The notes: generated by a model from the sequence alone, not told the origin. Counted from the stretch's first letter, positions 202-64,000 are shown. The stretch is DNA of 64,000 nt from Thermoplasmata archaeon (GCA_046758325.1 JBHHZZ010000001.1:17016-81015); one strand, 5' to 3'. Made by a program: numbers and translations.

Positions 202-1512
202 TCAGCCAACCTTCTCCCACTTCTCCAGTTCCAACACGCTGGAGAGAGTCCCCCCGCGCTTGATCTCCTCTCGAATCCTGTTCTCCCTCTCAAGGACGTC
301 CAGGGCCCTGTTGGCTATCTCCACCGCCACCTCCTGGGGAACGACGACCACACCGGTCTCGTCCCCGACGATCCAGTCTCCTGTCCTGACCCTCCGACCC
401 CCACAGATGATCTCCGGGCCGATCTCTCCGTGCCCCTTGGGCTCACCCGCGTGGGGAACAAGCCAGCGGGCAAAGACCGGGAAGTCGATGTCCAGGATGG
501 TGTCGATGTCCCTGGTAGCGCCGTCGATGACCACGCCCGCCACGCCCTTCACCTTGCAGCTCCACGATGCCAGTTCGCCCCACACCGCCGTCTTCCCACC
601 GCCAGCTTCCACCACGATGACCGTCCCCTTGGTGGCCTTGTCTATGGCCTCGACGGGTTTCGCCCAGTCGCCGTCGGCCGTCTTCACGGTGAGGGCCCGG
701 CCCACCATCTTGGTCCCCCTGTTTATCCTCGGGATGATTCCCTCCATGGGTCCCCTCTTCTGCATGGCGTCAGCGATGTTGGGGGTCGAAACCTTGCTGA
801 AGGCCCCGTAGAGCTCCTCCTTCCCGTATTTCTTGTACAGTCCGGTGCGTATCGACCTGACCTCATCTATGGCCTTCCTGAGGGCCTCCGTGGCCTGGGT
901 GACGTTGGGCTCCTTTATGATGGCGCCACCCACGATGATGATGGTGGCTCCCGCCTTCAGGGCCTGGGCCACCGTCTCTGAGTTTAGGCCCCCGGCCACG
1001 GCGATGGGTATGTTCACGGCCTCGGCCAGGGCCTTCAGCTCCTCCAGCGGGGTCCTGGCTATCATCTGCTCATCGATGCTCACGTGATGACAGAGGTAAT
1101 CCACGCCCAGGGCCTCGACCTCCTTCGCCCTCCTGACCTTGTCCTGGACGGCCATCAGGTCCCCCATGATCTTGGCACCATAGCGGCGGGCGGCCTTGAC
1201 AGCTTCCAGGACCGTGGCGTCGTCGGTCACCACCATGACGGAGATCACCTCCGCACCGGCCTTGGCCGCCATCTCCACCTCGAAGGCTCCGGTGTCCATG
1301 GTCTTCAGGTCAGCAACGATCACCCTGTCAGGAAAGGTCCGCTTCAGGGCCCTAACGGCCTCCAAGCCTTCGCTCTTTATGAGGGGGGTCCCCGCCTCCA
1401 GCCAATGGGCGCCGCCCTTGACGGCCTCCTCGGCCGCCTGTAGGGCCCTCTTGAGATGCATGAAGTCGAGGGCCACCTGAAGGACTGGCCGCTCTAGCAT
1501 GTCACGTTCCAT
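202..1512 (-). CDS. 3-hexulose-6-phosphate synthase (OMP-decarboxylase-like TIM barrel) fused to an RraA-like (MenG/RraA family) C-terminal domain
   Basis: N-terminal PVLQVALDF...VIVADLKTMD...IAVAGGL matches the HPS/KGPDC family. C-terminal ...GTKMVGRALTV...GTVIVVEAGG...GVVIDGATRD... matches the RraA fold. Start taken at internal MERDML. Confidence 0.6.
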   Translation of the reverse strand: MERDMLERPVLQVALDFMHLKRALQAAEEAVKGGAHWLEAGTPLIKSEGLEAVRALKRTFPDRVIVADLKTMDTGAFEVEMAAKAGAEVISVMVVTDDATVLEAVKAARRYGAKIMGDLMAVQDKVRRAKEVEALGVDYLCHHVSIDEQMIARTPLEELKALAEAVNIPIAVAGGLNSETVAQALKAGATIIIVGGAIIKEPNVTQATEALRKAIDEVRSIRTGLYKKYGKEELYGAFSKVSTPNIADAMQKRGPMEGIIPRINRGTKMVGRALTVKTADGDWAKPVEAIDKATKGTVIVVEAGGGKTAVWGELASWSCKVKGVAGVVIDGATRDIDTILDIDFPVFARWLVPHAGEPKGHGEIGPEIICGGRRVRTGDWIVGDETGVVVVPQEVAVEIANRALDVLERENRIREEIKRGGTLSSVLELEKWEKVG

Positions 1513-1649
1513 ACCGATGGCGATGTTAAAGCTTTGTCTGCGGCGCCGGTCCGTGGGAAGTCCCACGCCGCGCCGAGACCAGAGACTCAAAATCCTGGTT
1601 GATAACGATTGAGAAAACATGATAAGCGGAGGCCTAGGATAGCAGTTCT

Positions 1650-4552: not shown

Positions 4553-7500
4553 TTGGCCGAAGCAAAGACCATTAGGCAGACAATCAGCGTCACCCTCATT
4601 CTAGGTGGCATCTTCGCCCTCGCCGTCTTCATCCGGGCCTACTTCGCCTACGACCTGGCCCTCCGGGACTTCCTCGTGTCGGGAGGTTCCGACGCCTTCT
4701 ACTACAAACGCATCATCGACTACATCGTCTCCACGGGGAAGCACCTCGTCCGGGATGAGATGCTGAACTATCCCTTCGGAATGAACAACCCCAGGCCCCC
4801 CATCTACGCCTGGAGCGTGGCCCTCATCGGCATCCTGCTGGGCAACGTGCAGGGCTCCCTGGAGCTCGGAATATGGCAGAGCTTTCTCTTCTCCACCGCC
4901 TTCTGGGGCGCCCTCACCATCTTCCCCACCTACTTCCTGGCCCGGGACATCTTCGGCCGTCGGGTCGGGTTCGTGGCTGCATTCTTCTTGGCGATCCTCC
5001 CGGCCCACATTCAGAGGACGCCCCTGAGCAACGGGGACCACGACGCCCTCGTCCTCTTCTTCGTGGTGACTGCCTTCTACTTCTTCCTGAGGGCCTTGGG
5101 AGAGCTCAAGGAGAAGACCTGGGTGGACAACTGGATCAGGCCCACCACCGTATATCGGGGTTTGAGGCAGCTCATCGGGGAGAATAGAAGACCCGTCCTC
5201 CTATCGATCATGTCCGGCACGGCCATAGCGGTGGTGGCTCTCACCTGGCAGGGGTGGGCCTATGCCCCGGTGGTCGTAATAGCCTACTTCCTGGTCCAGC
5301 TCCTGGTGCACAAGTTGAGGAACCAGGACCCCCTGGGCACCCTCCTGTGCTTCACCGTGGCCCTGGGAACCGCTCATCTCCTGGCCGCTCCCTACTACAT
5401 CGCAACCGGCTTCGTCCGCACATGGTTCGACGTGCCCCTATTCCTCTTCGCCGCCTCTGTTGCCCTGGGCTTCCTCTTCGCCATCTTCCATCGCCTACCA
5501 TGGATGTTGGTCATCCCGCCCATCGTCCTTGGCTTCGGGGCCGGTCTTGCCATCGCATCCCTCTACAGTCCGGCGGTGGCCCAGACCCTGACCTCCGGTC
5601 TCGGTTACTTCGTCAGGACGAAGGTCTATGAGACCATCGCCGAGGCCCAGCCCCCTAACCTGAGCCAGGCAATCCTCTCCTTCGGCGCCGTGACATATTA
5701 CCTCTCCATGGTCGGCATCGTCTGGATGGCCATCCAGTTTGTTCGGAGGCCAAGGCTCCATTATCTCTTCGCCCTAGCGTGGAGCGCTGCGGCCATCTTC
5801 ATGGCCATGTCAGCCGTCCGGTTCATCTTCAACGCTTCCCCCGCCTTCGCCATCACCTCGGCGTGGGTGACGGTCCTCATCGTGGAGAGGCTGGGGCTAG
5901 AGCAGGTGAGGAAGGCCGTGGTATCCACGGGCGGGAGCAAATGGGTGGCCCTCAAGAGGGGGATAAAGGTCAGGCATGTGGCCGGAGCCCTCTTCGTTGC
6001 CCTTCTCCTCATCCTTCCTAACACCTGGTACGCCGTAGACGCTGCCATACCCTTCGAGAAGAAGCAGGAACTGGATCTGGAGGTGTACAGGAGCACGCCG
6101 GAGCCCCTGAGGCCCCAGGGCTACAGGGAGGGGAGTCTCTTCTACTTCGGCGCCTTCGGTTACAGTCTTCCCCTACCCAACAGGTACTTCCCGAAAGCTT
6201 GGGAATGGCTACGCCAGCAGGACGCCGACATAGTGCCGTATTGGGAGCGACCTGCCTTCCTGAGCTGGTGGGACTACGGGTTTGAGGCCATCCAAGAGGG
6301 CAGGCACCCGACAGTGGCGGACAACTTCCAGAACGGTCTCGAGTTCGCGGGTCACTTCCTGGCGGCCCAGAGCGAGAACGAGGCCATCGCGGTACTGAAC
6401 ATACGCCTCCTCCATGGAGACTTGACCCTCAACCGCGGCAGCTTCAGCGCGGGGGTCCGACAGGCCCTGGCCGATAAGGGCCTGGACCCTGATTTCGTGA
6501 AGGACGTCCTTCGCAGGCCCGCCGTCTACGTCCCCCTCATTAGGTCAGACCCGGATCGCTTCGGGGAATGGGATGTCCGACTCTCCAGCAAGAACGTGAG
6601 GGTGATCTTCCTCAAGACCGTGCTGACGGAGACGCTGGACCTGGACGGTCAGGCTGATCTCTATAGGGACCTGAGAAGCGCCACGGGCAACTCCGTCCTC
6701 TATTTCGCAGTCGACTCCCGACTCGTGCCCTTCTCAGGGACGAACACCGGGATATTCTACGCACCCATCAAGCTCACAGACCACAGAACGGTGGAATTGC
6801 CCGATGGCAGGAGCATACCCGTAGACTTCTACAGACTGGTGGCAGAGACAGACCGGGGGGAATATGACCTCGAAAAGGTGCCGCCAACGGCCAGGGTCAT
6901 CAACATCCGCATCGAGTACAAGGAGATGTTCTACAACAGCATGCTGTACAGAATCTTCTTCGGAACTCGCGGCCAGGACGTGGGTAAGGAGGACGATGGG
7001 CTTCCCGGGATATCTGGACAGCTGCAAGCAGAGGCACCCAGCCAAGGCCGAATGCTGAAGCACTTCAAAATGGTTTATCGAACGGCGTATTTCAACCCGA
7101 ACCCGCCCGACGAGGCCGCCAACAGAACGGAGGACTGGAGTGCCATCAACCTGTTCGACGCTCTGGAGCTGCAACAGAGCATCGAACGCGGGGAAGCAGA
7201 GGGGACCGTGGACATCTCGGCCCGAGCAAGTCTGCAACAGGGAATCGTCATCCTGAAGTACTACGACGGGGCCATCCTTAGGGGCCAGGTCACGACTCAG
7301 GCAGGCAGACCGCTGGAAGGAGTAAGGATAACAGTGCTCGACGACCTTTCCATACCCCACGATGTCACCTTCACAGACTCCAAGGGATTCTACGAAGCCC
7401 TGCTGCCCTTTGGGGAGGTCCGGGTGGTGGCCTCCGTGGGAGATGTGGACGGCGCTACCCAGACTGGGAGAACTGTCCTGGGCGAGAAAGAGCTGACGGT

Positions 7501-10500
7501 GAGCGAGGACCAGGCAATGAACCTCCCTCTGGACGTCGACGGCGATGGTCGCCCTGATTACCTCCTAGAGGAGCTGTTCCAGATCCAGGGGGCATCCCTG
7601 GAGGGCGTCGCCTTCCTGGACCTCAATGGAAACACGAGGAAGGACATGGAGGAAGGCACGCTTGAGGGACTGCAGGTGGAGGTTACGGACAGTAAGGGTG
7701 GTACCGTTGCCGCGACCCTGACGGACGCCGACGGGTTTTATCGGGTCACTGACCTCCTACCTGGCACCTACAACATCTCTCTCAGACGCGCGGACGCAAA
7801 GGTGGTGGAAACGGAAGTGACCATAACCCTGGGCGAGCGCAGGACTCAGGACCTGCCCGTCTTCGTCAAGCAACTGGCTGGCAGGGTGGTGGACGAGTTA
7901 GGTGGACCGGCGGAGGGAGCCCTAATCCAGCTGACGGAAGAGGCCACAGGCGTGCGGATCGTGACGGTGGCGAACGGCAAGGGAAACTACACCTTCGAAG
8001 GGCTCTTCGAGGGCAACTATACGCTGGAGGCCACCCTCGGAGAACGGGGCTCCCTCCCCAGGAGGTTGAGGATTGTACGGGGACAGAACACCACCGGAGA
8101 CCTAGAGGTGGAACCCATGGGCGAGCTCACAGGGAGATCCCTCCTTTCGTTTGTGCCGGCGCCTTTCGTGTCCTTTACATTGTTGAGGAGAGGGGACGGT
8201 CTTGCCGCAACCGTCATTAGCGACTCCTCAGCTCGCTTTGACGTGAGGTTGCCTGAAGGCACTTATGATGTCTACGCCTTGCACTTCGAGAGGAGCAGAC
8301 CCTACAGCTTTTTGGGAGCCCTCCAAGTGGGCGAAGGGAGCGTTCAGACTCTAGAGTTGAACCTCCAGCCCGCCTTGAGGGTCCATGGAAGCATCGTACA
8401 AGAGGACGGGACCGGGGCGGGCGGGGCCCACATTACTTTCGAGATGTCCGGGGCACAGACTACCCTCGTATCTGACAATGACGGCTCCTTCCTGGTGTAC
8501 CTACCACCTGGACCCTACAACTTGTGGGCCCTCTCGGAGGAGGGACAGCATGTATCCTCCTTGCTCTTGGAGACGACCACAAGTCTGGAGGTTCTCCTAG
8601 TAAGCGGGACGCCCGTGGAGGGAAGGGTTTTCTACGACAAAAACCGGAACGCCACGTGGGATGCCGGAGAGGGGCTGGAGGGCGTGCGGATTCAGCTCGT
8701 CGATTCCTCTGGAAGAGCCCTGTCTGTCATCACCCAGGAAGAGGGGAGGTACCGGGTTCCGCTCCTAAAGGAGACGAGCTACCGGCTGAGCATCGATGAG
8801 GCTGGTTTCACACCTATATCCCTCGGACCCTTCACGGCGACAGAGATGGCCGGCGTCGCCATCATCGAGCTGAGGCCTGAGACCCTTCAGGTTTCCGGAC
8901 GCCTCGAGGGGTCGGTGGACCTGGCGGGTATCGGTGTCCTCCTCGACGCCATCGGGGACGGCGCGACCTCCGTCGAGGTGACGACAGACGCCGCGGGCGC
9001 CTTCTCTGCCGAGGTCCTCCCTGGACTTTACAGGTTGGTAGTCGACGTCAGGGAGGACGGTGGCGGCGATGGCGTGAGAATCCAGAACCTGCAGGAGGAG
9101 ATTCTGAGGGTTCCCGTAGGAAAGGACGTGGGGCCCATCCTCATTCGAGTGGTCAGAAGGGTACTGGTGGAGGGGCAGATTGATGTGGAAGGGGGCCCCT
9201 TTGAGGGGGCACTTTCATTTATCGGCCCTGAGGAGGCCTCTCTCAACATCCAGGGGGAGTTCGCAACATACCTGCAGCCGGGAAACTACACTATCTACGC
9301 GACCGCCCAGCTGAACTTCAAGAAGTATGCGCTCCTGGAGCACAGAGACCTCACATCACCGGCAAACCTCTCCTTCACCCTAGATGAGGCCGCGGTTCTG
9401 TCAGGGGGTGTGAAGGTGGGAGATTCCATCGTCTCAAACAGCATTCCCCTGAGCTTCCTCCGCCAGGATGGGGCAAGGGTGGAGCTGCAGACTGAGGTCT
9501 CAGGGACCTACCTGGCAATCCTCTCTGGTGGTACATATCAGGTAAACCTCGAGTGGCGGGGCCTGGACGAGGTTGACGGCCTTCGGAGATTCGTTCGCTA
9601 TACCTTCAGTCAGGAGGTAACGGTCCAGGGAGGACAACCGGAACAGCTTGACCTCACGCTGAGCAGGTCCCTGGACAACGCTACCCTTGTGACTGAAGTG
9701 CTCCTCTCTGACCAGCTGGTCTCAGCTACCCTCACCTTTGAGGCAGCAAATGAGACAGCGGTGTCCACAACTGTCAAGGCTCCCGCTGGGACCTCTTTTG
9801 AGGTCTCTTTGGCGCCTGGAACCTACAGCATCTACGCCTACAGGGACACGGGCAAGTCGGTAAACCTGACCATGCTGGAGGTGGTGCCCTACATGAGCAA
9901 CGAGGCCACACTTCGCCTGGAGGCTGGATATAGAGTCGCCGGCGTCGTCTCTCTCGAGGATGGCACCAAGGAGACAGCGAGGATAGAGTTCACGTCGGTG
10001 GCAAGCATTAGCTTCGACTCCGACGGGCTAGGCATCTTCGAGGCGTATCTCCCCAAGGGCCAGTACCAGGTGACGGCCACCTCCCAGAGGCTCGAAAGGG
10101 GGATGCTCGTCGACTACGAGTTCTCTGGTCCCCTGGACATCAGGGAGAGTACCCTCCTGAACCTGCAGCTGGCCAGGGTAACCTTCCAGGGCGTGGAAGT
10201 CATATGGGATCCGTTGGAGAGGACCAGCGCCCTTCCAGGAGAGGGAGCGGTGTACACCCTGACCTTGAGGAACACGGGAAACGTGGAGGACAGCTTCAGA
10301 CTGGAGGGCCGACCCCAGGACTGGGGATTCGACTTCGACCCCCCAGTCGTGACCCTGCCCTTCGGTGAGAGTAGCGAGACTACCGTCAAGCTTACCATCA
10401 CCTCTCCCGACGACGCCGAGGTGGCTCATGAGCCTCTCGTCATCGAGGCCGTCTCCACCTCCAATGCCAGCGTTATGGAATTCACCCAGGTTGAGCTCGA

Positions 10501-11020
10501 CATACTTCAGATCAGGGGAGTCGTCCTACGTCTTTCGGAGGAGCCCCCTGTGCTGTCACCCGGGGCACTGGAGTACGAGGTCGAGGTGTTCAACGAGGGG
10601 AATGGGGAGGATATCTACACCCTCATCCTGACGAACCCAGAGACCCTCTCCATCCAGGGATGGAGAGCGAAGCTTCTCTACAAAAACCAGACCTCCCCAG
10701 ACAGGACGGAGGATGTCGCGGTCCCAGCTAGGGAGGCGAGGTCAGTGACCCTGAGGCTGGAGACAACGGGCCCCGTCAGCGCCTCCAAGGTTGTTCTGCT
10801 GGCCTTTTCCCAGGATGATCGCAATGTGGAGTCTTACCTAGAGGTGAAGCTCTCCTTCCCTTCCCTTGACATTCCCATTGAGGATGTAAGCCTCGAAGGG
10901 AAGAACGTGAGGTTGGGACCTCCGGAGTTCCCACTGATCCTCTACGCGGCCATAGCAGCGGCCGCCGTCCTCGCGGCCATCATCCTCATTCGGTACAGAC
11001 AGAAGAGGTGGCGCCGTTGA
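4553..11020 (+). CDS. aglB: Giant AglB/STT3 oligosaccharyltransferase (2155 aa): N-terminal multi-TM STT3 domain with WWDYG, then about 8 tandem CarboxypepD_reg/Cna-B (SdrD-B-like) beta-sandwich repeats and a C-terminal TM anchor
   Basis: WWDYGFEAIQ catalytic motif near nt 6268. Repeats of the form G.V.D..G.PLEGV.I.L.D......TDA.GFY....L.PG.Y.L span about nt 7250-10850. Hydrophobic LILYAAIAAAAVLAAIILI lies at the C-terminus. TTG start. Confidence 0.8.
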   Translation: MAEAKTIRQTISVTLILGGIFALAVFIRAYFAYDLALRDFLVSGGSDAFYYKRIIDYIVSTGKHLVRDEMLNYPFGMNNPRPPIYAWSVALIGILLGNVQGSLELGIWQSFLFSTAFWGALTIFPTYFLARDIFGRRVGFVAAFFLAILPAHIQRTPLSNGDHDALVLFFVVTAFYFFLRALGELKEKTWVDNWIRPTTVYRGLRQLIGENRRPVLLSIMSGTAIAVVALTWQGWAYAPVVVIAYFLVQLLVHKLRNQDPLGTLLCFTVALGTAHLLAAPYYIATGFVRTWFDVPLFLFAASVALGFLFAIFHRLPWMLVIPPIVLGFGAGLAIASLYSPAVAQTLTSGLGYFVRTKVYETIAEAQPPNLSQAILSFGAVTYYLSMVGIVWMAIQFVRRPRLHYLFALAWSAAAIFMAMSAVRFIFNASPAFAITSAWVTVLIVERLGLEQVRKAVVSTGGSKWVALKRGIKVRHVAGALFVALLLILPNTWYAVDAAIPFEKKQELDLEVYRSTPEPLRPQGYREGSLFYFGAFGYSLPLPNRYFPKAWEWLRQQDADIVPYWERPAFLSWWDYGFEAIQEGRHPTVADNFQNGLEFAGHFLAAQSENEAIAVLNIRLLHGDLTLNRGSFSAGVRQALADKGLDPDFVKDVLRRPAVYVPLIRSDPDRFGEWDVRLSSKNVRVIFLKTVLTETLDLDGQADLYRDLRSATGNSVLYFAVDSRLVPFSGTNTGIFYAPIKLTDHRTVELPDGRSIPVDFYRLVAETDRGEYDLEKVPPTARVINIRIEYKEMFYNSMLYRIFFGTRGQDVGKEDDGLPGISGQLQAEAPSQGRMLKHFKMVYRTAYFNPNPPDEAANRTEDWSAINLFDALELQQSIERGEAEGTVDISARASLQQGIVILKYYDGAILRGQVTTQAGRPLEGVRITVLDDLSIPHDVTFTDSKGFYEALLPFGEVRVVASVGDVDGATQTGRTVLGEKELTVSEDQAMNLPLDVDGDGRPDYLLEELFQIQGASLEGVAFLDLNGNTRKDMEEGTLEGLQVEVTDSKGGTVAATLTDADGFYRVTDLLPGTYNISLRRADAKVVETEVTITLGERRTQDLPVFVKQLAGRVVDELGGPAEGALIQLTEEATGVRIVTVANGKGNYTFEGLFEGNYTLEATLGERGSLPRRLRIVRGQNTTGDLEVEPMGELTGRSLLSFVPAPFVSFTLLRRGDGLAATVISDSSARFDVRLPEGTYDVYALHFERSRPYSFLGALQVGEGSVQTLELNLQPALRVHGSIVQEDGTGAGGAHITFEMSGAQTTLVSDNDGSFLVYLPPGPYNLWALSEEGQHVSSLLLETTTSLEVLLVSGTPVEGRVFYDKNRNATWDAGEGLEGVRIQLVDSSGRALSVITQEEGRYRVPLLKETSYRLSIDEAGFTPISLGPFTATEMAGVAIIELRPETLQVSGRLEGSVDLAGIGVLLDAIGDGATSVEVTTDAAGAFSAEVLPGLYRLVVDVREDGGGDGVRIQNLQEEILRVPVGKDVGPILIRVVRRVLVEGQIDVEGGPFEGALSFIGPEEASLNIQGEFATYLQPGNYTIYATAQLNFKKYALLEHRDLTSPANLSFTLDEAAVLSGGVKVGDSIVSNSIPLSFLRQDGARVELQTEVSGTYLAILSGGTYQVNLEWRGLDEVDGLRRFVRYTFSQEVTVQGGQPEQLDLTLSRSLDNATLVTEVLLSDQLVSATLTFEAANETAVSTTVKAPAGTSFEVSLAPGTYSIYAYRDTGKSVNLTMLEVVPYMSNEATLRLEAGYRVAGVVSLEDGTKETARIEFTSVASISFDSDGLGIFEAYLPKGQYQVTATSQRLERGMLVDYEFSGPLDIRESTLLNLQLARVTFQGVEVIWDPLERTSALPGEGAVYTLTLRNTGNVEDSFRLEGRPQDWGFDFDPPVVTLPFGESSETTVKLTITSPDDAEVAHEPLVIEAVSTSNASVMEFTQVELDILQIRGVVLRLSEEPPVLSPGALEYEVEVFNEGNGEDIYTLILTNPETLSIQGWRAKLLYKNQTSPDRTEDVAVPAREARSVTLRLETTGPVSASKVVLLAFSQDDRNVESYLEVKLSFPSLDIPIEDVSLEGKNVRLGPPEFPLILYAAIAAAAVLAAIILIRYRQKRWRR

Positions 11021-35299: not shown

Positions 35300-36424
35300 T
35301 TAACGGATAAGGTCTATCTCCCCCTCCACGATGTGCCCCGTCTCCTTTCCGAGGAGGTGTTCGCCCTCCACCCCTGTCAGAACCACGAGGACGCGGACAT
35401 CCTCCTTCAGGTTGGGATCCACCGAACAACCCCAGATGATGCGGGCCATGCTGTTTATCCTGTCCCCTATGAGTTCGGCCGCTCGCTCGGCCTCGGACAC
35501 CGTCAGGTCGGTGCCGCCGACCACCCGGATGAGGGCCCCACCGACCTGGCTGAGGTTGACCTCTCCCAGGAGGGGTGATTCCAGGGCCTCGGCCACCGCC
35601 ACGTCGATCCTATCCGTCTCGCCTCCACCCTCCCCCATGCCGATCATGGCCACCCCGCCATCCTCGATGATCGTCATGAGGTCGCTGAAGTCGATGTTCA
35701 CCAATCCTGGCCTCGTGACTATCTCGGTCATGCCCTTTATGCTCTGCATGAGGATTTCGTCCGCGACCTTGAAGGCGGCCTCGATGGGCAGCTTTGGGAC
35801 GAGCTCCAGGAGCTTGTCGTTCTCGATGACGGCCGTGGTGTCACAGTAGCGTCGAAGCTTGTCGATGCCGCCGTCAGCGTTATCCCTCCTCATGCCCCCC
35901 TCGGCGGTGAAGGGCATGGTCACCACGCCCATGACGAGGGCGCCAGTCTCCTTCGCCAGTCGCGCAACAACATGAGCGCTACCGGTCCCCGTTCCCCCTC
36001 CAAGGCCCGCCGTCACGAAGACGACGTTGGCTCCCTGCAGGAACGCCCTGATCTCCCCCTCACTCTCCCTAGCCGCCTTCTCACCTATCTCAGGGATGGC
36101 CCCGGCACCCAAACCCCTGGTAATGCGCCGGCCGATGAGCATCTTCTTGGGGGACCTGATATGGAGGAGATGCTTGGCGTCGGTGTTGATGGCGCAAAGC
36201 TGAGCGCCCACTATGCCGGCCTCGCACAGCCTGCTAATGGTGTTGGACCCTCCGCCGCCGCAACCCACAATCTTGATGCTGACGCTCAGGGACTCCACAA
36301 TGCCCCTTAGCTCCTCGTCCTCTTCTGCAATGGGGAGGTTCATGGCCTCGTGAGGCTCTCCCCCTCCGACCCCCTCAAACCTGGCGATGGCCCTGTCGAC
36401 AATGGACTTCATAGAGCATCCCAT
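35300..36424 (-). CDS. ftsZ: Cell division GTPase FtsZ
   Basis: [18 protein letters not shown] tubulin signature. Confidence 0.85.
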
Positions 36425-36476: not shown

Positions 36477-37652
36477 CTACCAGGCGCCCTTGCCACGGCG
36501 GAAGATCGCGGCCGAGGCGGCGGCGGTGACGGCCACCCCAAGGAGGACGTACATGATGACACCTGGCGTAAGCTCCCGGATGGGACCCTCCAACAGCTCC
36601 CCGATGGTGAGTATCTTGGTGGAGAGCTCGGGGATGTAGACCAGGAAGATGATTCCGTTGGGTCCCGTGGCGGCATAGTATCTGGGGGAAGAGGAGGAGG
36701 ATGAGGGAATCTCGTCCGCGTTGTTCGTCCTTTCGACGGGGTTGCCGTCCAGTTCCACAGATAGCCTGTCCATGTCCGCAATCTTGAGGACCTCATGGTG
36801 CAGGTTGATGGCAACCACGATGCCCGGCGATGGGACCGCTGTCTGGGAATCCCGGGAAATTGTGACCTCCACGTTTCCCGCCGCGTCGAGGCTCGACTTC
36901 ACAGATATGTCGGAGTAGAGGACCGCGTCCTCCATGATGCCCCCCTCAAAGGCAACCAGGAAGAGCTCCGCGCCCAGCCTCTGCCGGGCCAAGGCGTTGA
37001 AGACGGTCGCCTGGGCCCAGGAGCCGACCGCCCCTTCATCATCTGCTGGATGGGCCCTGAAGGAGATGACGCTGCCCTGAGACAGGCCGACTCTGACGAC
37101 GTTCGGCTCTACTGAGGTCGTGCTCGACCCGGGCGTGGCGAGCTGACCGCTGAAGCCCGTCCCTGAGACGAGGACGGAATCGCTCTGGAGGGCGAAGAAG
37201 ACGCCTGGAGCGGCTGTGAAGGTGATGCTGAGCTGTTGGGCCATGGAGCGGTAGACGAGGGCCCGGCTGGGATTGTTATGGATACTGACCGATACGTCCG
37301 TACCTTCAAACAAGAGGGCGGGTGACTCTTCAGGTGCTAGGGCCCAAGCTCCAGTCTCCGTGGTGCCTTCGACCTCGACCTGTGCAAACACCTCTGTTGA
37401 CACACCGTCCCTCACGATGCTAAAGGAGGCTAGGCTGCCGTCTGTTCCGAGCATCTCTGCTTCCACGAAGGCGCCCTCGAGAACGCCACCCTCGAACGAG
37501 AGTGGGCCGAACATTCCGACACTTTGGGCTAGATCGAGAGCCTCTTTCCTCCATTCAGCACCGAAAGGTGGCTCGAAGGGGGGCTGAGCCGCGCCTGCCC
37601 CTACGAGTAGGATGACGGATGCGAACACCACTGCCAGGTAGACTCCCCTCAT
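36477..37652 (-). CDS. Secreted surface protein with signal peptide and C-terminal TM anchor
   Basis: N-terminal MRGVYLAVVFASVILLVGAGAAQ; C-terminal IMYVLLGVAVTAAASAAIFRRGK. Confidence 0.5.
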   Translation of the reverse strand: MRGVYLAVVFASVILLVGAGAAQPPFEPPFGAEWRKEALDLAQSVGMFGPLSFEGGVLEGAFVEAEMLGTDGSLASFSIVRDGVSTEVFAQVEVEGTTETGAWALAPEESPALLFEGTDVSVSIHNNPSRALVYRSMAQQLSITFTAAPGVFFALQSDSVLVSGTGFSGQLATPGSSTTSVEPNVVRVGLSQGSVISFRAHPADDEGAVGSWAQATVFNALARQRLGAELFLVAFEGGIMEDAVLYSDISVKSSLDAAGNVEVTISRDSQTAVPSPGIVVAINLHHEVLKIADMDRLSVELDGNPVERTNNADEIPSSSSSSPRYYAATGPNGIIFLVYIPELSTKILTIGELLEGPIRELTPGVIMYVLLGVAVTAAASAAIFRRGKGAW

Positions 37653-60507: not shown

Positions 60508-60681
60508 ATGACGGTAGAGGAGTCCCTTGTCAATGTGGAATTCCTCAAGAGCTCGAACACCTACATTGCCAGGGTGCAGAGCGAGCTTGGCGGCTTGAGG
60601 GAATACAGGAGTTCCACTTTCGAGGAGGTGCTGGAGCAGGTCATCATCGACCTTCAGGAAGAGTTTGAAAGCACTCCGTAG
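60508..60681 (+). CDS. Small UPF0150/HicB-like fold protein (57 aa), absent from the ORF track
   Basis: MTVEESLVNVEFLKSSNTYIARVQSELGGLREYRSSTFEEVLEQVIIDLQEEFESTP; TATA cttaaatatgg at about 60452-60462. Confidence 0.35.
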   Translation: MTVEESLVNVEFLKSSNTYIARVQSELGGLREYRSSTFEEVLEQVIIDLQEEFESTP

Positions 60682-61466: not shown

Positions 61467-62336
61467 CTATGCACTCCTGTAGTCGTATACCCCCCTGCCT
61501 GCCTTTCTACCGAGGCGGCCAGCCCGGACGTACTGCCGGAGCAGAGGGGAGGGTCGAAACTTCGGATCCCCCGTCTCCCGATGCAGGACCTCCATGACCG
61601 CCAGGCCCACATCCAGACCGGTGAAGTCAGCCAGCTCAAAGGGGCCCATAGGCATGTTGGTGCCCAGTTTCATCGCCTTGTCTATGTCCTCAGCCGAGGC
61701 GGTGCCCTCCATGAGGAGGTTGAAGGCCTCGTTCATCATCGGCACTAGGAGGCGGTTCACGACGAAGCCTGGGGATTCCTTCACCACGACGGGCTCCTTT
61801 CCGAGCCTGTGACTCAGTTCCCGGGCCAACGTCATGGTATCGTCCGAGGTCTCCGAGCCCCTGATGAGCTCGATGAGCTTCATGACGGGGGCCGGGTTGA
61901 AGAAGTGCATGCCTAGGAACCGGTCCGCCCTGGAGGTGGCGGCGGCCATCTCGGTTACGCTGAGGGACGAGGTGTTGGTGGCAAAGACCACCTCTGGACG
62001 ACACAACCTGTCAATCTCCCGATAGAGCTCCTTCTTCACTTCCATGTTCTCGAAGATGGCCTCGATGACGAGGTCTGCGTCCTTCACGGCCTCCTCAAGA
62101 TCGACGGTGCCGTGAATGTGCCCGATGATCTCCTCGACCTCATTCTGCGTCATCTTTCCCTTTCGGACCCTCCTCTCCAGAGGGGTGCGGATCCTCTCGT
62201 AACCGGCTTCCACCAGCTCCTCCGTCAGGTCCCGCATGATGACCTTGTACCCCGCCTGGCTGCAGGTCTGCGCTATCCCAGCGCCCATGGTTCCCGCTCC
62301 CAGTACGCAGATCCTTTCGATGTCCTCTGCCTTCAT
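61467..62336 (-). CDS. hbd: 3-hydroxyacyl-CoA (3-hydroxybutyryl-CoA) dehydrogenase
   Basis: ICVLGAGTMGAGIAQ Rossmann N-terminus with a 3HCDH C-domain. Confidence 0.8.
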   Translation of the reverse strand: MKAEDIERICVLGAGTMGAGIAQTCSQAGYKVIMRDLTEELVEAGYERIRTPLERRVRKGKMTQNEVEEIIGHIHGTVDLEEAVKDADLVIEAIFENMEVKKELYREIDRLCRPEVVFATNTSSLSVTEMAAATSRADRFLGMHFFNPAPVMKLIELIRGSETSDDTMTLARELSHRLGKEPVVVKESPGFVVNRLLVPMMNEAFNLLMEGTASAEDIDKAMKLGTNMPMGPFELADFTGLDVGLAVMEVLHRETGDPKFRPSPLLRQYVRAGRLGRKAGRGVYDYRSA

Positions 62337-62374
62337 GCTCCTCCCTAGAATCGGCCATCATCCCCACCGTATAA

Positions 62375-63334
62375 TTAGTTTCCTTGAAAGTCCTCAGGTA
62401 GGCTGCACTCCCCAGGCTTCAGGTCCGGTCTTAGCCTCAGGAAGACAGGGGCCCTCAACTTTCCATCCTCCGTGAACTCCAGGTACTTGACCTCGCAGAC
62501 CAGGGCAGGTCTCAGCCAGGTCAGGACACCTGGGTCCACTTGGGGTTCTCGGGGAAAGGGGCAGCGGCTCACAAGGCTTCTGGCTGCCTCTTCGATCTCG
62601 ACCACCCTGGCTTCGTCGAACCCGGTGCCGACCTTTCCCAGAAAGTGGAGTTCCCCCTCCTTGTAGGCTCCCAGGATGAGGGCACCGAAGCGGCCCGCTC
62701 TGGTCCCTCTTCCCACGGTCAGGCCACACACAATGCAGTCCAGGCTCTTGTAGGTCTTTATCTTCAGCCAGTGGCCCACCCGCCTGCCAGGTTCGTACAG
62801 GCCCTTCAGCCTCTTGGCCATGATACCCTCCAGACCCCTCTCTTTGGCCGCCTCGAAGAAGGCTATGCCCTCGCCCCAGACGGGCTCGCTCAGGGACACG
62901 TTCTCGTCAGGTTCCAGCACATCCTCGAGGACGCGGCGCCGCTCTGCGAGGGGCATAGACAGGAGGCTCGTGTCCTCAAAGTGAAGGATGTCGAAGACGA
63001 CATAGGTGGCCGGGAACTCCCTGGCTAGGAGGGACGCCTTGAAGGCATCGCCGGCCCTCTCCCTCTGCTGCAGCCTCTGAAAATCAGGTCTCCCCCGGTG
63101 CATGACGACGATCTCGCCGTCGAGGACCGCTCTGCCCCCGACCTTTGGCTCGATTTCCGGATATCGCCGGGTGATGTCCGTGAGCCGTCGGTTCTGAAAC
63201 CTGTGCTTCTCCTCACAGAAGGCTATCACCCTCGTCCCGTCCCACTTGATCTCGAAAAGGTAGTCCTCGGAGTCGAAGGGTTCGCTCCTGGCCGTGGCAA
63301 GCATGGGCTTGATGGGACCTTTGGGAAACGGCAT
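62375..63334 (-). CDS. ATP-dependent DNA ligase, small LigD-ligase-domain type
   Basis: EIKWDGTR (KxDG motif I) in a 319-aa OB-fold ligase. Confidence 0.75.
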   Translation of the reverse strand: MPFPKGPIKPMLATARSEPFDSEDYLFEIKWDGTRVIAFCEEKHRFQNRRLTDITRRYPEIEPKVGGRAVLDGEIVVMHRGRPDFQRLQQRERAGDAFKASLLAREFPATYVVFDILHFEDTSLLSMPLAERRRVLEDVLEPDENVSLSEPVWGEGIAFFEAAKERGLEGIMAKRLKGLYEPGRRVGHWLKIKTYKSLDCIVCGLTVGRGTRAGRFGALILGAYKEGELHFLGKVGTGFDEARVVEIEEAARSLVSRCPFPREPQVDPGVLTWLRPALVCEVKYLEFTEDGKLRAPVFLRLRPDLKPGECSLPEDFQGN

Positions 63335-63335
63335 G

Positions 63336-64000
63336 TCACGATGGCTTCTTCACGGATTCCAGACTGGCTTTCAAAGCCGCCATGAGATCCTCGGGGGACT
63401 CCCGCTGCTCCACCGCGGGGGCCTCGACCTCCCTTCCCTCAACCTTGGCCTCGATGACCTCCAGGATGGCCTCCCTGTAGCGGTCCTTGAACTTGCTCAT
63501 GTCGAAGGGCGCGGTCAGGGTCTGAATCAGGTTGAGAGCGAGTTCCACCTCCCCCTCGGACACCGTCACGGGTTTTTCGGCGGGAATCGCCGGCGGCTCC
63601 CTGACGTCGTCTTCGTAGTAGAGCGTGGAGAGCACCAAGTGGTTGCCTCGCGGCCGGATGATGACCACCTGCTCCTTCTTCCATATAGTGGCCTGGGCCA
63701 CAGCGGCCTTGTTAGTGAGTTCCAGGGCCTGCCTGAAGAGTTCGAAGGGCTTGACACTGGTCTCAGTGGGCGCCAGGTAGTAGGTGGACTCGTAGAGAAT
63801 GGGGTCCACCTCCTCCCGGTCTACAAAGCCCTGGACCTCCAGGGCCTTGCTGCTCTCTAGAGGCACCTTCTGAAAGTCCTCATCCACGAGAATGACATAC
63901 TGGCCCTTGGCGTACTCGTACCCCTTCTGAATGTCATCGTAGGATACCTGCACCTCGCAGGTGGGGCAGTAGTACGGTCTCTTCAGGGGCGTATTGCACT
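63336..64000 (-). CDS. ku: Ku protein (NHEJ), 5' end outside the window
   Basis: ...YESTYYLAPTE... Ku core. The ORF continues past the window edge as KRPYYCPTCEVQ. Its stop abuts the ligase ATG. Confidence 0.7.
   Translation of the reverse strand, partial: CNTPLKRPYYCPTCEVQVSYDDIQKGYEYAKGQYVILVDEDFQKVPLESSKALEVQGFVDREEVDPILYESTYYLAPTETSVKPFELFRQALELTNKAAVAQATIWKKEQVVIIRPRGNHLVLSTLYYEDDVREPPAIPAEKPVTVSEGEVELALNLIQTLTAPFDMSKFKDRYREAILEVIEAKVEGREVEAPAVEQRESPEDLMAALKASLESVKKPS

Follow-up and report, generated by a model that had tools for sequence, protein, structure and literature searches.

A coupled ku-lig gene pair as a likely minimal bacterial-type end-joining module in a Thermoplasmata archaeon

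The 64,000-nucleotide (nt) stretch of Thermoplasmata archaeon DNA analyzed here (GCA_046758325.1 JBHHZZ010000001.1:17016-81015, hereafter the window) carries at its far end two adjacent genes on the minus strand, ku and lig, which likely constitute a minimal non-homologous end-joining (NHEJ) module. The ku gene runs off the edge of the window, which holds its 220 C-terminal codons and TGA stop (63336..64000; Pfam PF02735, TIGR02772). It is followed by lig (62375..63334; Pfam, TIGR02779), which codes for a 319-aa stand-alone ATP-dependent ligase of predicted LigD type made up of the nucleotidyltransferase (NTase) and OB domains only. Exact-sequence look-ups identified the window ligase as GenBank MFQ5837240.1, to which it is identical, and the window Ku as MFQ5837241.1, titled "MAG: Ku protein [Thermoplasmata archaeon]". 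Both entries derive from a single 155,932-bp contig of a Thermoplasmata archaeon metagenome-assembled genome (MAG). The naming of ku and lig is already in GenBank, and the present identification is in that respect correct, routine annotation.

The lig open reading frame (ORF) starts with ATG, and Pfam analyses of its product revealed the domains DNA_ligase_A_M (9e-35) and DNA_ligase_A_C (2e-24) and no DNA_ligase_A_N, the N-terminal DNA-binding domain. The protein scored above the cutoff of the curated NHEJ ligase family TIGR02779 (NHEJ_ligase_lig; 253.3 bits, cutoff 227.75) and below the cutoffs of the other models that matched it, namely dnl1 (145.6 bits), PRK08224 (167.3, cutoff 296), which we take to be the LigC-type model, and PRK03180 (121). 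The six nucleotidyltransferase motifs were located at K30 (motif I, KWDG), D72-G-E74 (III), F114-D115 (IIIa), E169...K174 (IV), K191/K193 (V) and R300/R302 (VI). Across 36 homologues, K30, D32, G33, R35, D72, E74, F114, D115, E169, K174, K191 and K193 never vary and R300 and R302 are nearly invariant. The AlphaFold2 (AF2) model of the protein comprises two domains (pLDDT 94.8). In phmmer searches with lig, bacterial LigD ligase domains mostly scored 200-255 bits, compared to about 93-101 bits for the Lig1-type ligase encoded in the neighbourhood of the pair (see below). A neighbour-joining (NJ) tree, which like the other trees in this work is small, distance-based and built from sequences preselected by similarity, separated a LigD-type clade including lig from the neighbouring Lig1 cores with 100% bootstrap. 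The score, the NTase and OB architecture with six motifs, the phylogenetic grouping and the linkage to ku are those of a LigD-type ligase domain. Judged by its sequence, lig is of the LigD type and not of the Lig1 type, the decisive observations being the curated family scores, the phmmer scores and the NJ tree. The initial annotation of this DNA, made from the sequence alone, had called the product a 319-aa KxDG ligase of the LigD ligase-domain type, a call borne out by the TIGR02779 score and the K30-W-D-G motif. The placement among replicative Lig1-type enzymes that it had set against this call is contradicted by the scores for the two families (253 bits for TIGR02779 compared to 146 bits for dnl1) and by the 100% bootstrap in the tree.

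The frame coding for Ku (63336..63998) is open to the window edge and ends with the TGA at 63338..63336. Its product matched the Pfam Ku domain PF02735 (1.2e-38) and the TIGR02772 (Ku_bact) family with 228 bits (cutoff 150), covering profile positions 37-259 only, which places about 39 N-terminal codons outside the window. Three Logan contigs hold the same locus. One of them, L002, which differs from the window by 3 mismatches in 1701 overlapping nt, codes for a complete Ku of 259 aa (PF02735, 6.5e-50; TIGR02772 positions 1-259, 289 bits), and the full ku gene is also present on the near-identical contig L001. The gene is truncated by the window edge only and is complete in the genome, its first 39 codons and its promoter lying beyond the edge. 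The Ku core that the initial annotation had recognized from the peptide YESTYYLAP (63768..63794) is real, and the complete 259-aa gene in L002 rules out that Ku is a fragment, the contrary outcome which that annotation had mentioned. Solved bacterial Ku structures were matched by sequence (9vnq, 6.6e-56; 8v53, 4.5e-43). The C-terminus consists of a conserved minimal region, DLMAALKASL, that aligns with bacterial Ku proteins and is without an extended basic tail. A core scoring above the curated cutoff and a single domain of about 260 aa with a minimal C-terminal region characterize the protein as a bacterial-type Ku, which is predicted to form a homodimeric ring binding DNA ends.

Two further observations concern Ku itself. 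Residues 37-55 (window ~63850..63920, minus strand) form an H-x2-C-x12-C-P-x-C motif that resembles a metal-binding site. The motif also occurs in Bacillota Ku proteins, and its fourth and last Cys is replaced in part of the Thermoplasmata clade, giving CPxD or CPxH. Separately, a 440-aa database protein (P0215), 59% identical to the window Ku, carries a Ku domain together with A_M and A_C of the ligase; this may reflect a true fusion of Ku and ligase, or else erroneous gene calling across a 1-nt junction.

Direct reading of the sequence showed that the two genes are joined by TGA-c-ATG (63332..63338, minus strand), in which the ku stop (63338..63336) and the lig start (63334..63332) are separated by the single base 63335, so that the abutting arrangement described in the initial annotation was correct to within 1 nt. 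The ku-lig spacing was 1-5 nt, or an ATGA overlap, in 10 of the 10 archaeal loci checked. The 1-nt junction implies co-transcription and, probably, coupled translation of the two genes. In seven loci, the ku ATG is preceded at a distance of 32-40 nt by a TATA-like element, (a)aatt-CCTTTAA-c, which falls outside the window. The CCTTTAA element is kept whether the upstream gene codes for a Lig1-type ligase, a MatE transporter or other products, and this independence of the upstream gene suggests that ku-lig has its own promoter. The downstream limit of the unit is a 38-nt spacer (62337..62374, minus strand) that separates lig from the next gene, which codes for a 3-hydroxyacyl-CoA dehydrogenase (61467..62336, minus strand). 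On the coding strand, a TATA-like TTATAC comes straight after the lig stop and GGGAGGAG is found shortly upstream of the dehydrogenase ATG. The same spacer layout recurs after lig in the related loci L004 and L005, and these two elements suggest a separate downstream unit with a putative promoter of its own.

The initial annotation had placed the polymerase (PolDom) and phosphoesterase (PE) modules of the system, if present, beyond the window edge. We built hidden Markov models from the PolDom and PE domains that Pfam recognized in bacterial loci and ran these models (--max) on six-frame translations of the 64-kb window and of all archaeal loci fetched, about 312 kb including overlapping copies. 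Throughout these ~312 kb, no match better than E=9 was obtained for PolDom (PF21686) and none better than E=16 for PE (PF13298), compared to 1.3e-74 and 1.7e-61, respectively, for a Bathyarchaeota locus used as a positive control. Neither domain was found in the 1.4 kb beyond the window edge, which is occupied by a Lig1-type ligase gene instead of the expected modules, or in the 10 kb on either side of the pair in some 10 distinct archaeal loci. Likewise, precomputed Pfam annotation over ±10 kb in five further archaeal contigs, the ligases of which are 47-68% identical to that of the window, listed ku and lig on each and nothing resembling Pol or PE. As no PolDom or PE is present in the window or near the pair, the complete NHEJ of the initial annotation is not shown at this locus.

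We compared the pair to four known arrangements. The Archaeoglobus-type pair, which in Archaeoglobus fulgidus is presumably AF1726/AF1725 and reportedly features in the 2001 bioinformatic papers that first described prokaryotic Ku, was represented by an Archaeoglobi MAG locus (L010, a 9.6-kb contig). Both arrangements consist of ku followed by a tightly coupled lig (ATGA overlap in L010) that codes for a stand-alone, LigDom-only ligase, and no PolDom or PE was detected on the 9.6-kb Archaeoglobi contig. However, the Archaeoglobi ligase is only 43-44% identical to that of the window, its Ku falls outside the grouping of Thermoplasmata and Bacillota proteins, and the flanking genes differ.

The only experimentally characterized archaeal NHEJ system is the Archaeo-Prokaryotic NHEJ (AP-NHEJ) of Methanocella paludicola, which comprises Ku, Lig, Pol and PE (PMC4797286, PMC8708640). 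As in the window, a euryarchaeon here has a bacterial-type Ku and a stand-alone ligase, each a small protein with a gene of its own. A ligase from a Methanocellales MAG, 52% identical to the window ligase, clusters with it in a broad archaeal group of weak support. The M. paludicola lig gene shares an operon with pol and PE, and according to the literature no single operon holds all four genes, whereas in the window lig is coupled to ku and no Pol or PE is visible. The ku-lig-pol operons of anaerobic Bacillota (Desulfotomaculum, Pelotomaculum and Clostridiales MAGs; loci L012, L013 and L026) resemble the window in the order of ku and lig, the LigDom-only ligases, the H/C...CPxC motif and the minimal Ku C-terminus. 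They differ in that a PolDom gene directly follows lig, where the Thermoplasmata unit ends, and identity is about 40-45%. Finally, the Ku and LigD proteins of Mycobacterium tuberculosis and Bacillus subtilis share with the window a homologous Ku core with a minimal C-terminus and a homologous ligase domain that aligns from end to end and has all six motifs. In these bacteria, by contrast, LIG is fused to POL, as well as to PE in M. tuberculosis, and Ku has an extended C-terminal arm (PMC9638933) that is not present in the window Ku.

We consider it likely that this chromosomal two-gene operon is a minimal bacterial-type (Archaeo-Prokaryotic) NHEJ module of a Thermoplasmata archaeon. In such a module, a Ku homodimer ring would thread onto both ends of a double-strand break and keep them together, and the Ku core and its DLMAALKASL C-terminus would recruit and stimulate the stand-alone ligase. 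The latter would self-adenylate at Lys30, pass AMP to the 5′-phosphate and seal the strands. Either clean or compatible ends alone would be joined, or the ends would be processed in trans by the replicative AEP primase PriSL, by PolB/PolD or by nucleases. We infer the end binding, the Ku-ligase contact, the substrate range, the promoter and the end-processing enzyme of this scheme. The Ku protein of M. tuberculosis is known to bind the LIG domain directly, and its minimal C-terminus stimulates LIG (PMC9638933). PriSL carries out end joining in Saccharolobus (PMC12019639), and it is a plausible, though speculative, surrogate polymerase partner here.

Several considerations weigh against the minimal-module interpretation. 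Isolated M. tuberculosis LIG joins double-strand ends weakly and the main contact of Ku with LigD is thought to be POL (PMC9638933), so that a module of Ku and LIG only may need a polymerase partner and be inefficient without one. The function of the module in this lineage is predicted from its genes, the ku promoter was called on a short motif alone, and the trees are small NJ trees of sequences preselected by similarity. In addition, the search for PolDom and PE was limited to the window and the fetched loci, and these genes may sit elsewhere in the genome, just as ku lies apart from lig-pol-PE in M. paludicola.

This last consideration is central to the alternative that survives best, according to which the genome codes for a complete four-component system (Ku, Lig, Pol and PE) with Pol and PE located elsewhere, ku-lig being half of it. 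Archaeal NHEJ genes have been reported to be dispersed rather than gathered in one operon (bioRxiv 10.1101/2023.09.30.560322), the PE gene of M. paludicola shares an operon with pol and lig (PMC4797286), PolDom, Ku and a Lig-PE fusion are neighbours in a Bathyarchaeota locus, and the poor performance of the M. tuberculosis LIG domain alone in double-strand end joining points in the same direction. Against this, PolDom and PE are lacking from the 64-kb window, from the 1.4 kb beyond it and from ±10 kb around the pair in about 10 archaeal loci, and the ligase of the window's lineage is coupled to ku and not to pol and PE. Given that the closest bacterial operons have the order ku-lig-pol, the position of pol is simply empty in the window's lineage. 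We regard a complete system split across the genome as possible but rather unlikely.

The surroundings of the pair are those of an ordinary chromosomal region. The window codes for ribosomal protein S17e, RNase P Rpr2, an STT3/AglB-type oligosaccharyltransferase, MetRS, PurH, PurD and FtsZ, and the genes for S17e, Rpr2 and the STT3/AglB-type protein identify the host as an archaeon. Among GTDB species representatives, the closest are three MAGs that bear the label "uncultured Methanomassiliicoccales archaeon", and their ligases share 63-67% identity with that of the window. An Rfam search of the window returned no match, and neither Ku nor the ligase nor two small ORFs close by matched a defence system in PADLOC.

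Beyond a 57-nt spacer upstream of ku lies a same-strand gene for a three-domain (A_N, A_M, A_C) Lig1-type ligase that is cut by the contig end (L002:1-1413). Copies were found at L004:6598-8208, L040:6091-7701, L006:292-1902, L007:5318-6922 and L008:4492-6081. The full-length orthologue in relatives has 536 aa, scores 376 bits with the dnl1 superfamily and matches the replicative ligases of Thermococcus, Pyrococcus and Archaeoglobus with E ~1e-116 to 1e-120; the ligase is probably replicative. It is found upstream of ku-lig in every close relative and directly adjoins the pair in the window's lineage; in other lineages a MatE transporter gene, a 1004-aa ORF or a small divergent ORF lies between the two. 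Such insertions indicate that the adjacency is not operonic. One conserved neighbourhood thereby holds two ligase genes of different classes. The small ORF divergent from ku codes for 112-142 aa (L004:8732-9070 and L007:8756-9184, both minus strand) starting with MPQPRSRKPTISIRVELTPQENAIVETAKA; it has no Pfam or PADLOC match and is missing from the window's lineage.

The order Lig1-type ligase ... ku-lig-3-hydroxyacyl-CoA dehydrogenase-enoyl-CoA hydratase-57-aa ORF-S17e-ABC-Rpr2-M24 peptidase recurs in loci with ligases 61-69% identical to that of the window. The 57-aa ORF, located between the enoyl-CoA hydratase and S17e genes (60508..60681, plus strand), has no Pfam match on record and no PADLOC match, and L001, L004 and L040 each have a gene of 56-57 aa called in the corresponding place. 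In two distant Thermoplasmata loci, a glyoxalase/bleomycin-resistance-like gene (PF00903, PF22677) directly follows ku-lig (L038:11089-11526 and L041:11006-11836). This could reflect a thematic link, bleomycin being a cause of double-strand breaks, or a coincidence.

The initial annotation had asked whether the pair was acquired horizontally from bacteria. The GC content of ku-lig (0.60-0.62) equals that of its flanks, and the identity of Ku and Lig to their counterparts in syntenic genomes (62-73%) lies inside the range of the flanking housekeeping genes (61-81%). Host-like GC, synteny and a divergence matching that of the neighbours make a recent transfer unlikely. In an NJ tree of Ku proteins, Thermoplasmata formed a 100% clade that was sister to anaerobic Bacillota with 87% bootstrap, Archaeoglobi Ku falling outside. 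In the ligase tree, the window protein fell within Methanomassiliicoccales/Thermoplasmata, a clade with 100% bootstrap, and support for the wider archaeal group was only 37-54%. These results fit an ancient archaea-Firmicutes exchange, in either direction, that would predate the radiation of the clade; Sharda et al. (PMC7719229) have put forward such an exchange.

The idea that the pair came recently from bacteria by horizontal transfer, or that it travels with a mobile element, a virus or a defence island, would agree with the known passage of Ku and LigD-LIG between bacteria and archaea (PMC7719229) and with the Bacillota sister group. However, the pair is surrounded by housekeeping genes (S17e, Rpr2, MetRS, FtsZ and purine synthesis), genomes that have diverged by ~30-40% keep the identical gene order, and even the best-matching bacterial ligases reach only 39-46% identity to the window ligase. 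GC, synteny, parity of divergence and the PADLOC result are the grounds on which both a mobile or defence island and a recent transfer were rejected, and we hold this explanation to be highly improbable.

It is similarly hard to sustain that the ligase has no part in NHEJ and is a second replicative, Lig1-like enzyme or a LigC-like excision-repair ligase that adjoins ku incidentally. Apart from the presence of a Lig1-type ligase in the neighbourhood, this explanation draws on two comparisons, by sequence to PDB entries and by fold, that discriminate poorly. The top match of a phmmer search of the PDB was the M. tuberculosis LigD ligase domain (1VS0, 4e-43, end-to-end alignment), with the Pyrococcus furiosus replicative ligase narrowly behind (1e-40), a gap that is not decisive for class. 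A fold search with the AF2 model retrieved LigD LigDom and Lig1 cores alike at E ~1e-26, which confirms the fold and does not separate the classes. By contrast, the ligase is above the cutoff of TIGR02779, below those of dnl1 and PRK08224, devoid of the DNA-binding domain and part of the LigD-type clade, and its coupling to ku within 1-5 nt or by overlap is kept in every archaeal relative examined, leaving an incidental adjacency with a very slim chance of being correct. Least credible of all is that ku and lig are decaying, non-functional remnants, as the lack of Pol and PE nearby and the loss of the fourth Cys of the Ku motif in part of the wider clade might suggest, for all relatives keep both ORFs uninterrupted and at full length, and the NTase motifs, the Ku C-terminal motif and the proposed promoter motif are conserved.

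Three other ORFs of the window deserve mention. A 2155-aa ORF (4553..11020, plus strand) begins with an STT3/AglB-type N-terminal part (aa 46-433), continues with an extended series of CarboxypepD_reg, SdrD_B and transthyretin-like Ig-fold domains, and is unusually long for an archaeal AglB. A 391-aa ORF (36477..37652, minus strand) adjoining ftsZ (35300..36424) has no Pfam match at E<=1e-4. Lastly, a 472-aa ORF (202..1620, minus strand) codes for a protein in which an OMP-decarboxylase/HPS-family domain is fused to an RraA-like aldolase domain.

Ku and NHEJ have been described as rare in archaea (PMC7719229, PMC8708640, PMC12019639). Ku and LigD-LIG occurred together in 10 of 243 archaeal genomes (PMC7719229), OrthoDB lists 19 archaeal Ku sequences (PMC11936186), and "Only M. 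paludicola" was said to have the complete complex among archaea (PMC8708640). The initial annotation's description of the system as rare and patchy in archaea agrees with this literature; it does not sit well with the many close relatives that we found in uncultured Thermoplasmata. In a large protein collection, the best 120 ligase matches were at least 44% identical to the window protein and the best 120 Ku matches at least 54%. All organism-named entries among these (9 ligase and 11 Ku matches) were archaeal, from Thermoplasmata, Methanobacteriota/Euryarchaeota MAGs and Methanocellales or Halobacteria MAGs. The ku-lig pairs constitute a sizeable family in uncultured Thermoplasmata from many metagenome sources, with a stable chromosomal site in the closest lineages. 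What is added here is modest, namely that Pol and PE are consistently not nearby, that the pair is vertically conserved in a Thermoplasmata clade, and that this contrasts with the view of Ku as rare.

More tentatively, we propose that a large uncultured Thermoplasmata clade may have vertically inherited an end-joining system of Ku and a LigDom-only ligase without a dedicated NHEJ polymerase or phosphoesterase, perhaps borrowing PriSL; we think this doubtful rather than probable. If true, Ku-dependent end joining would be far commoner in archaea than the literature says and would exist there in a genuinely two-component form. If the module works alone, it would represent NHEJ in its simplest cellular form and, with two genes in ~1.75 kb, a candidate for a compact tool, and it would bear on the spread of Ku-based repair between Bacillota and archaea.

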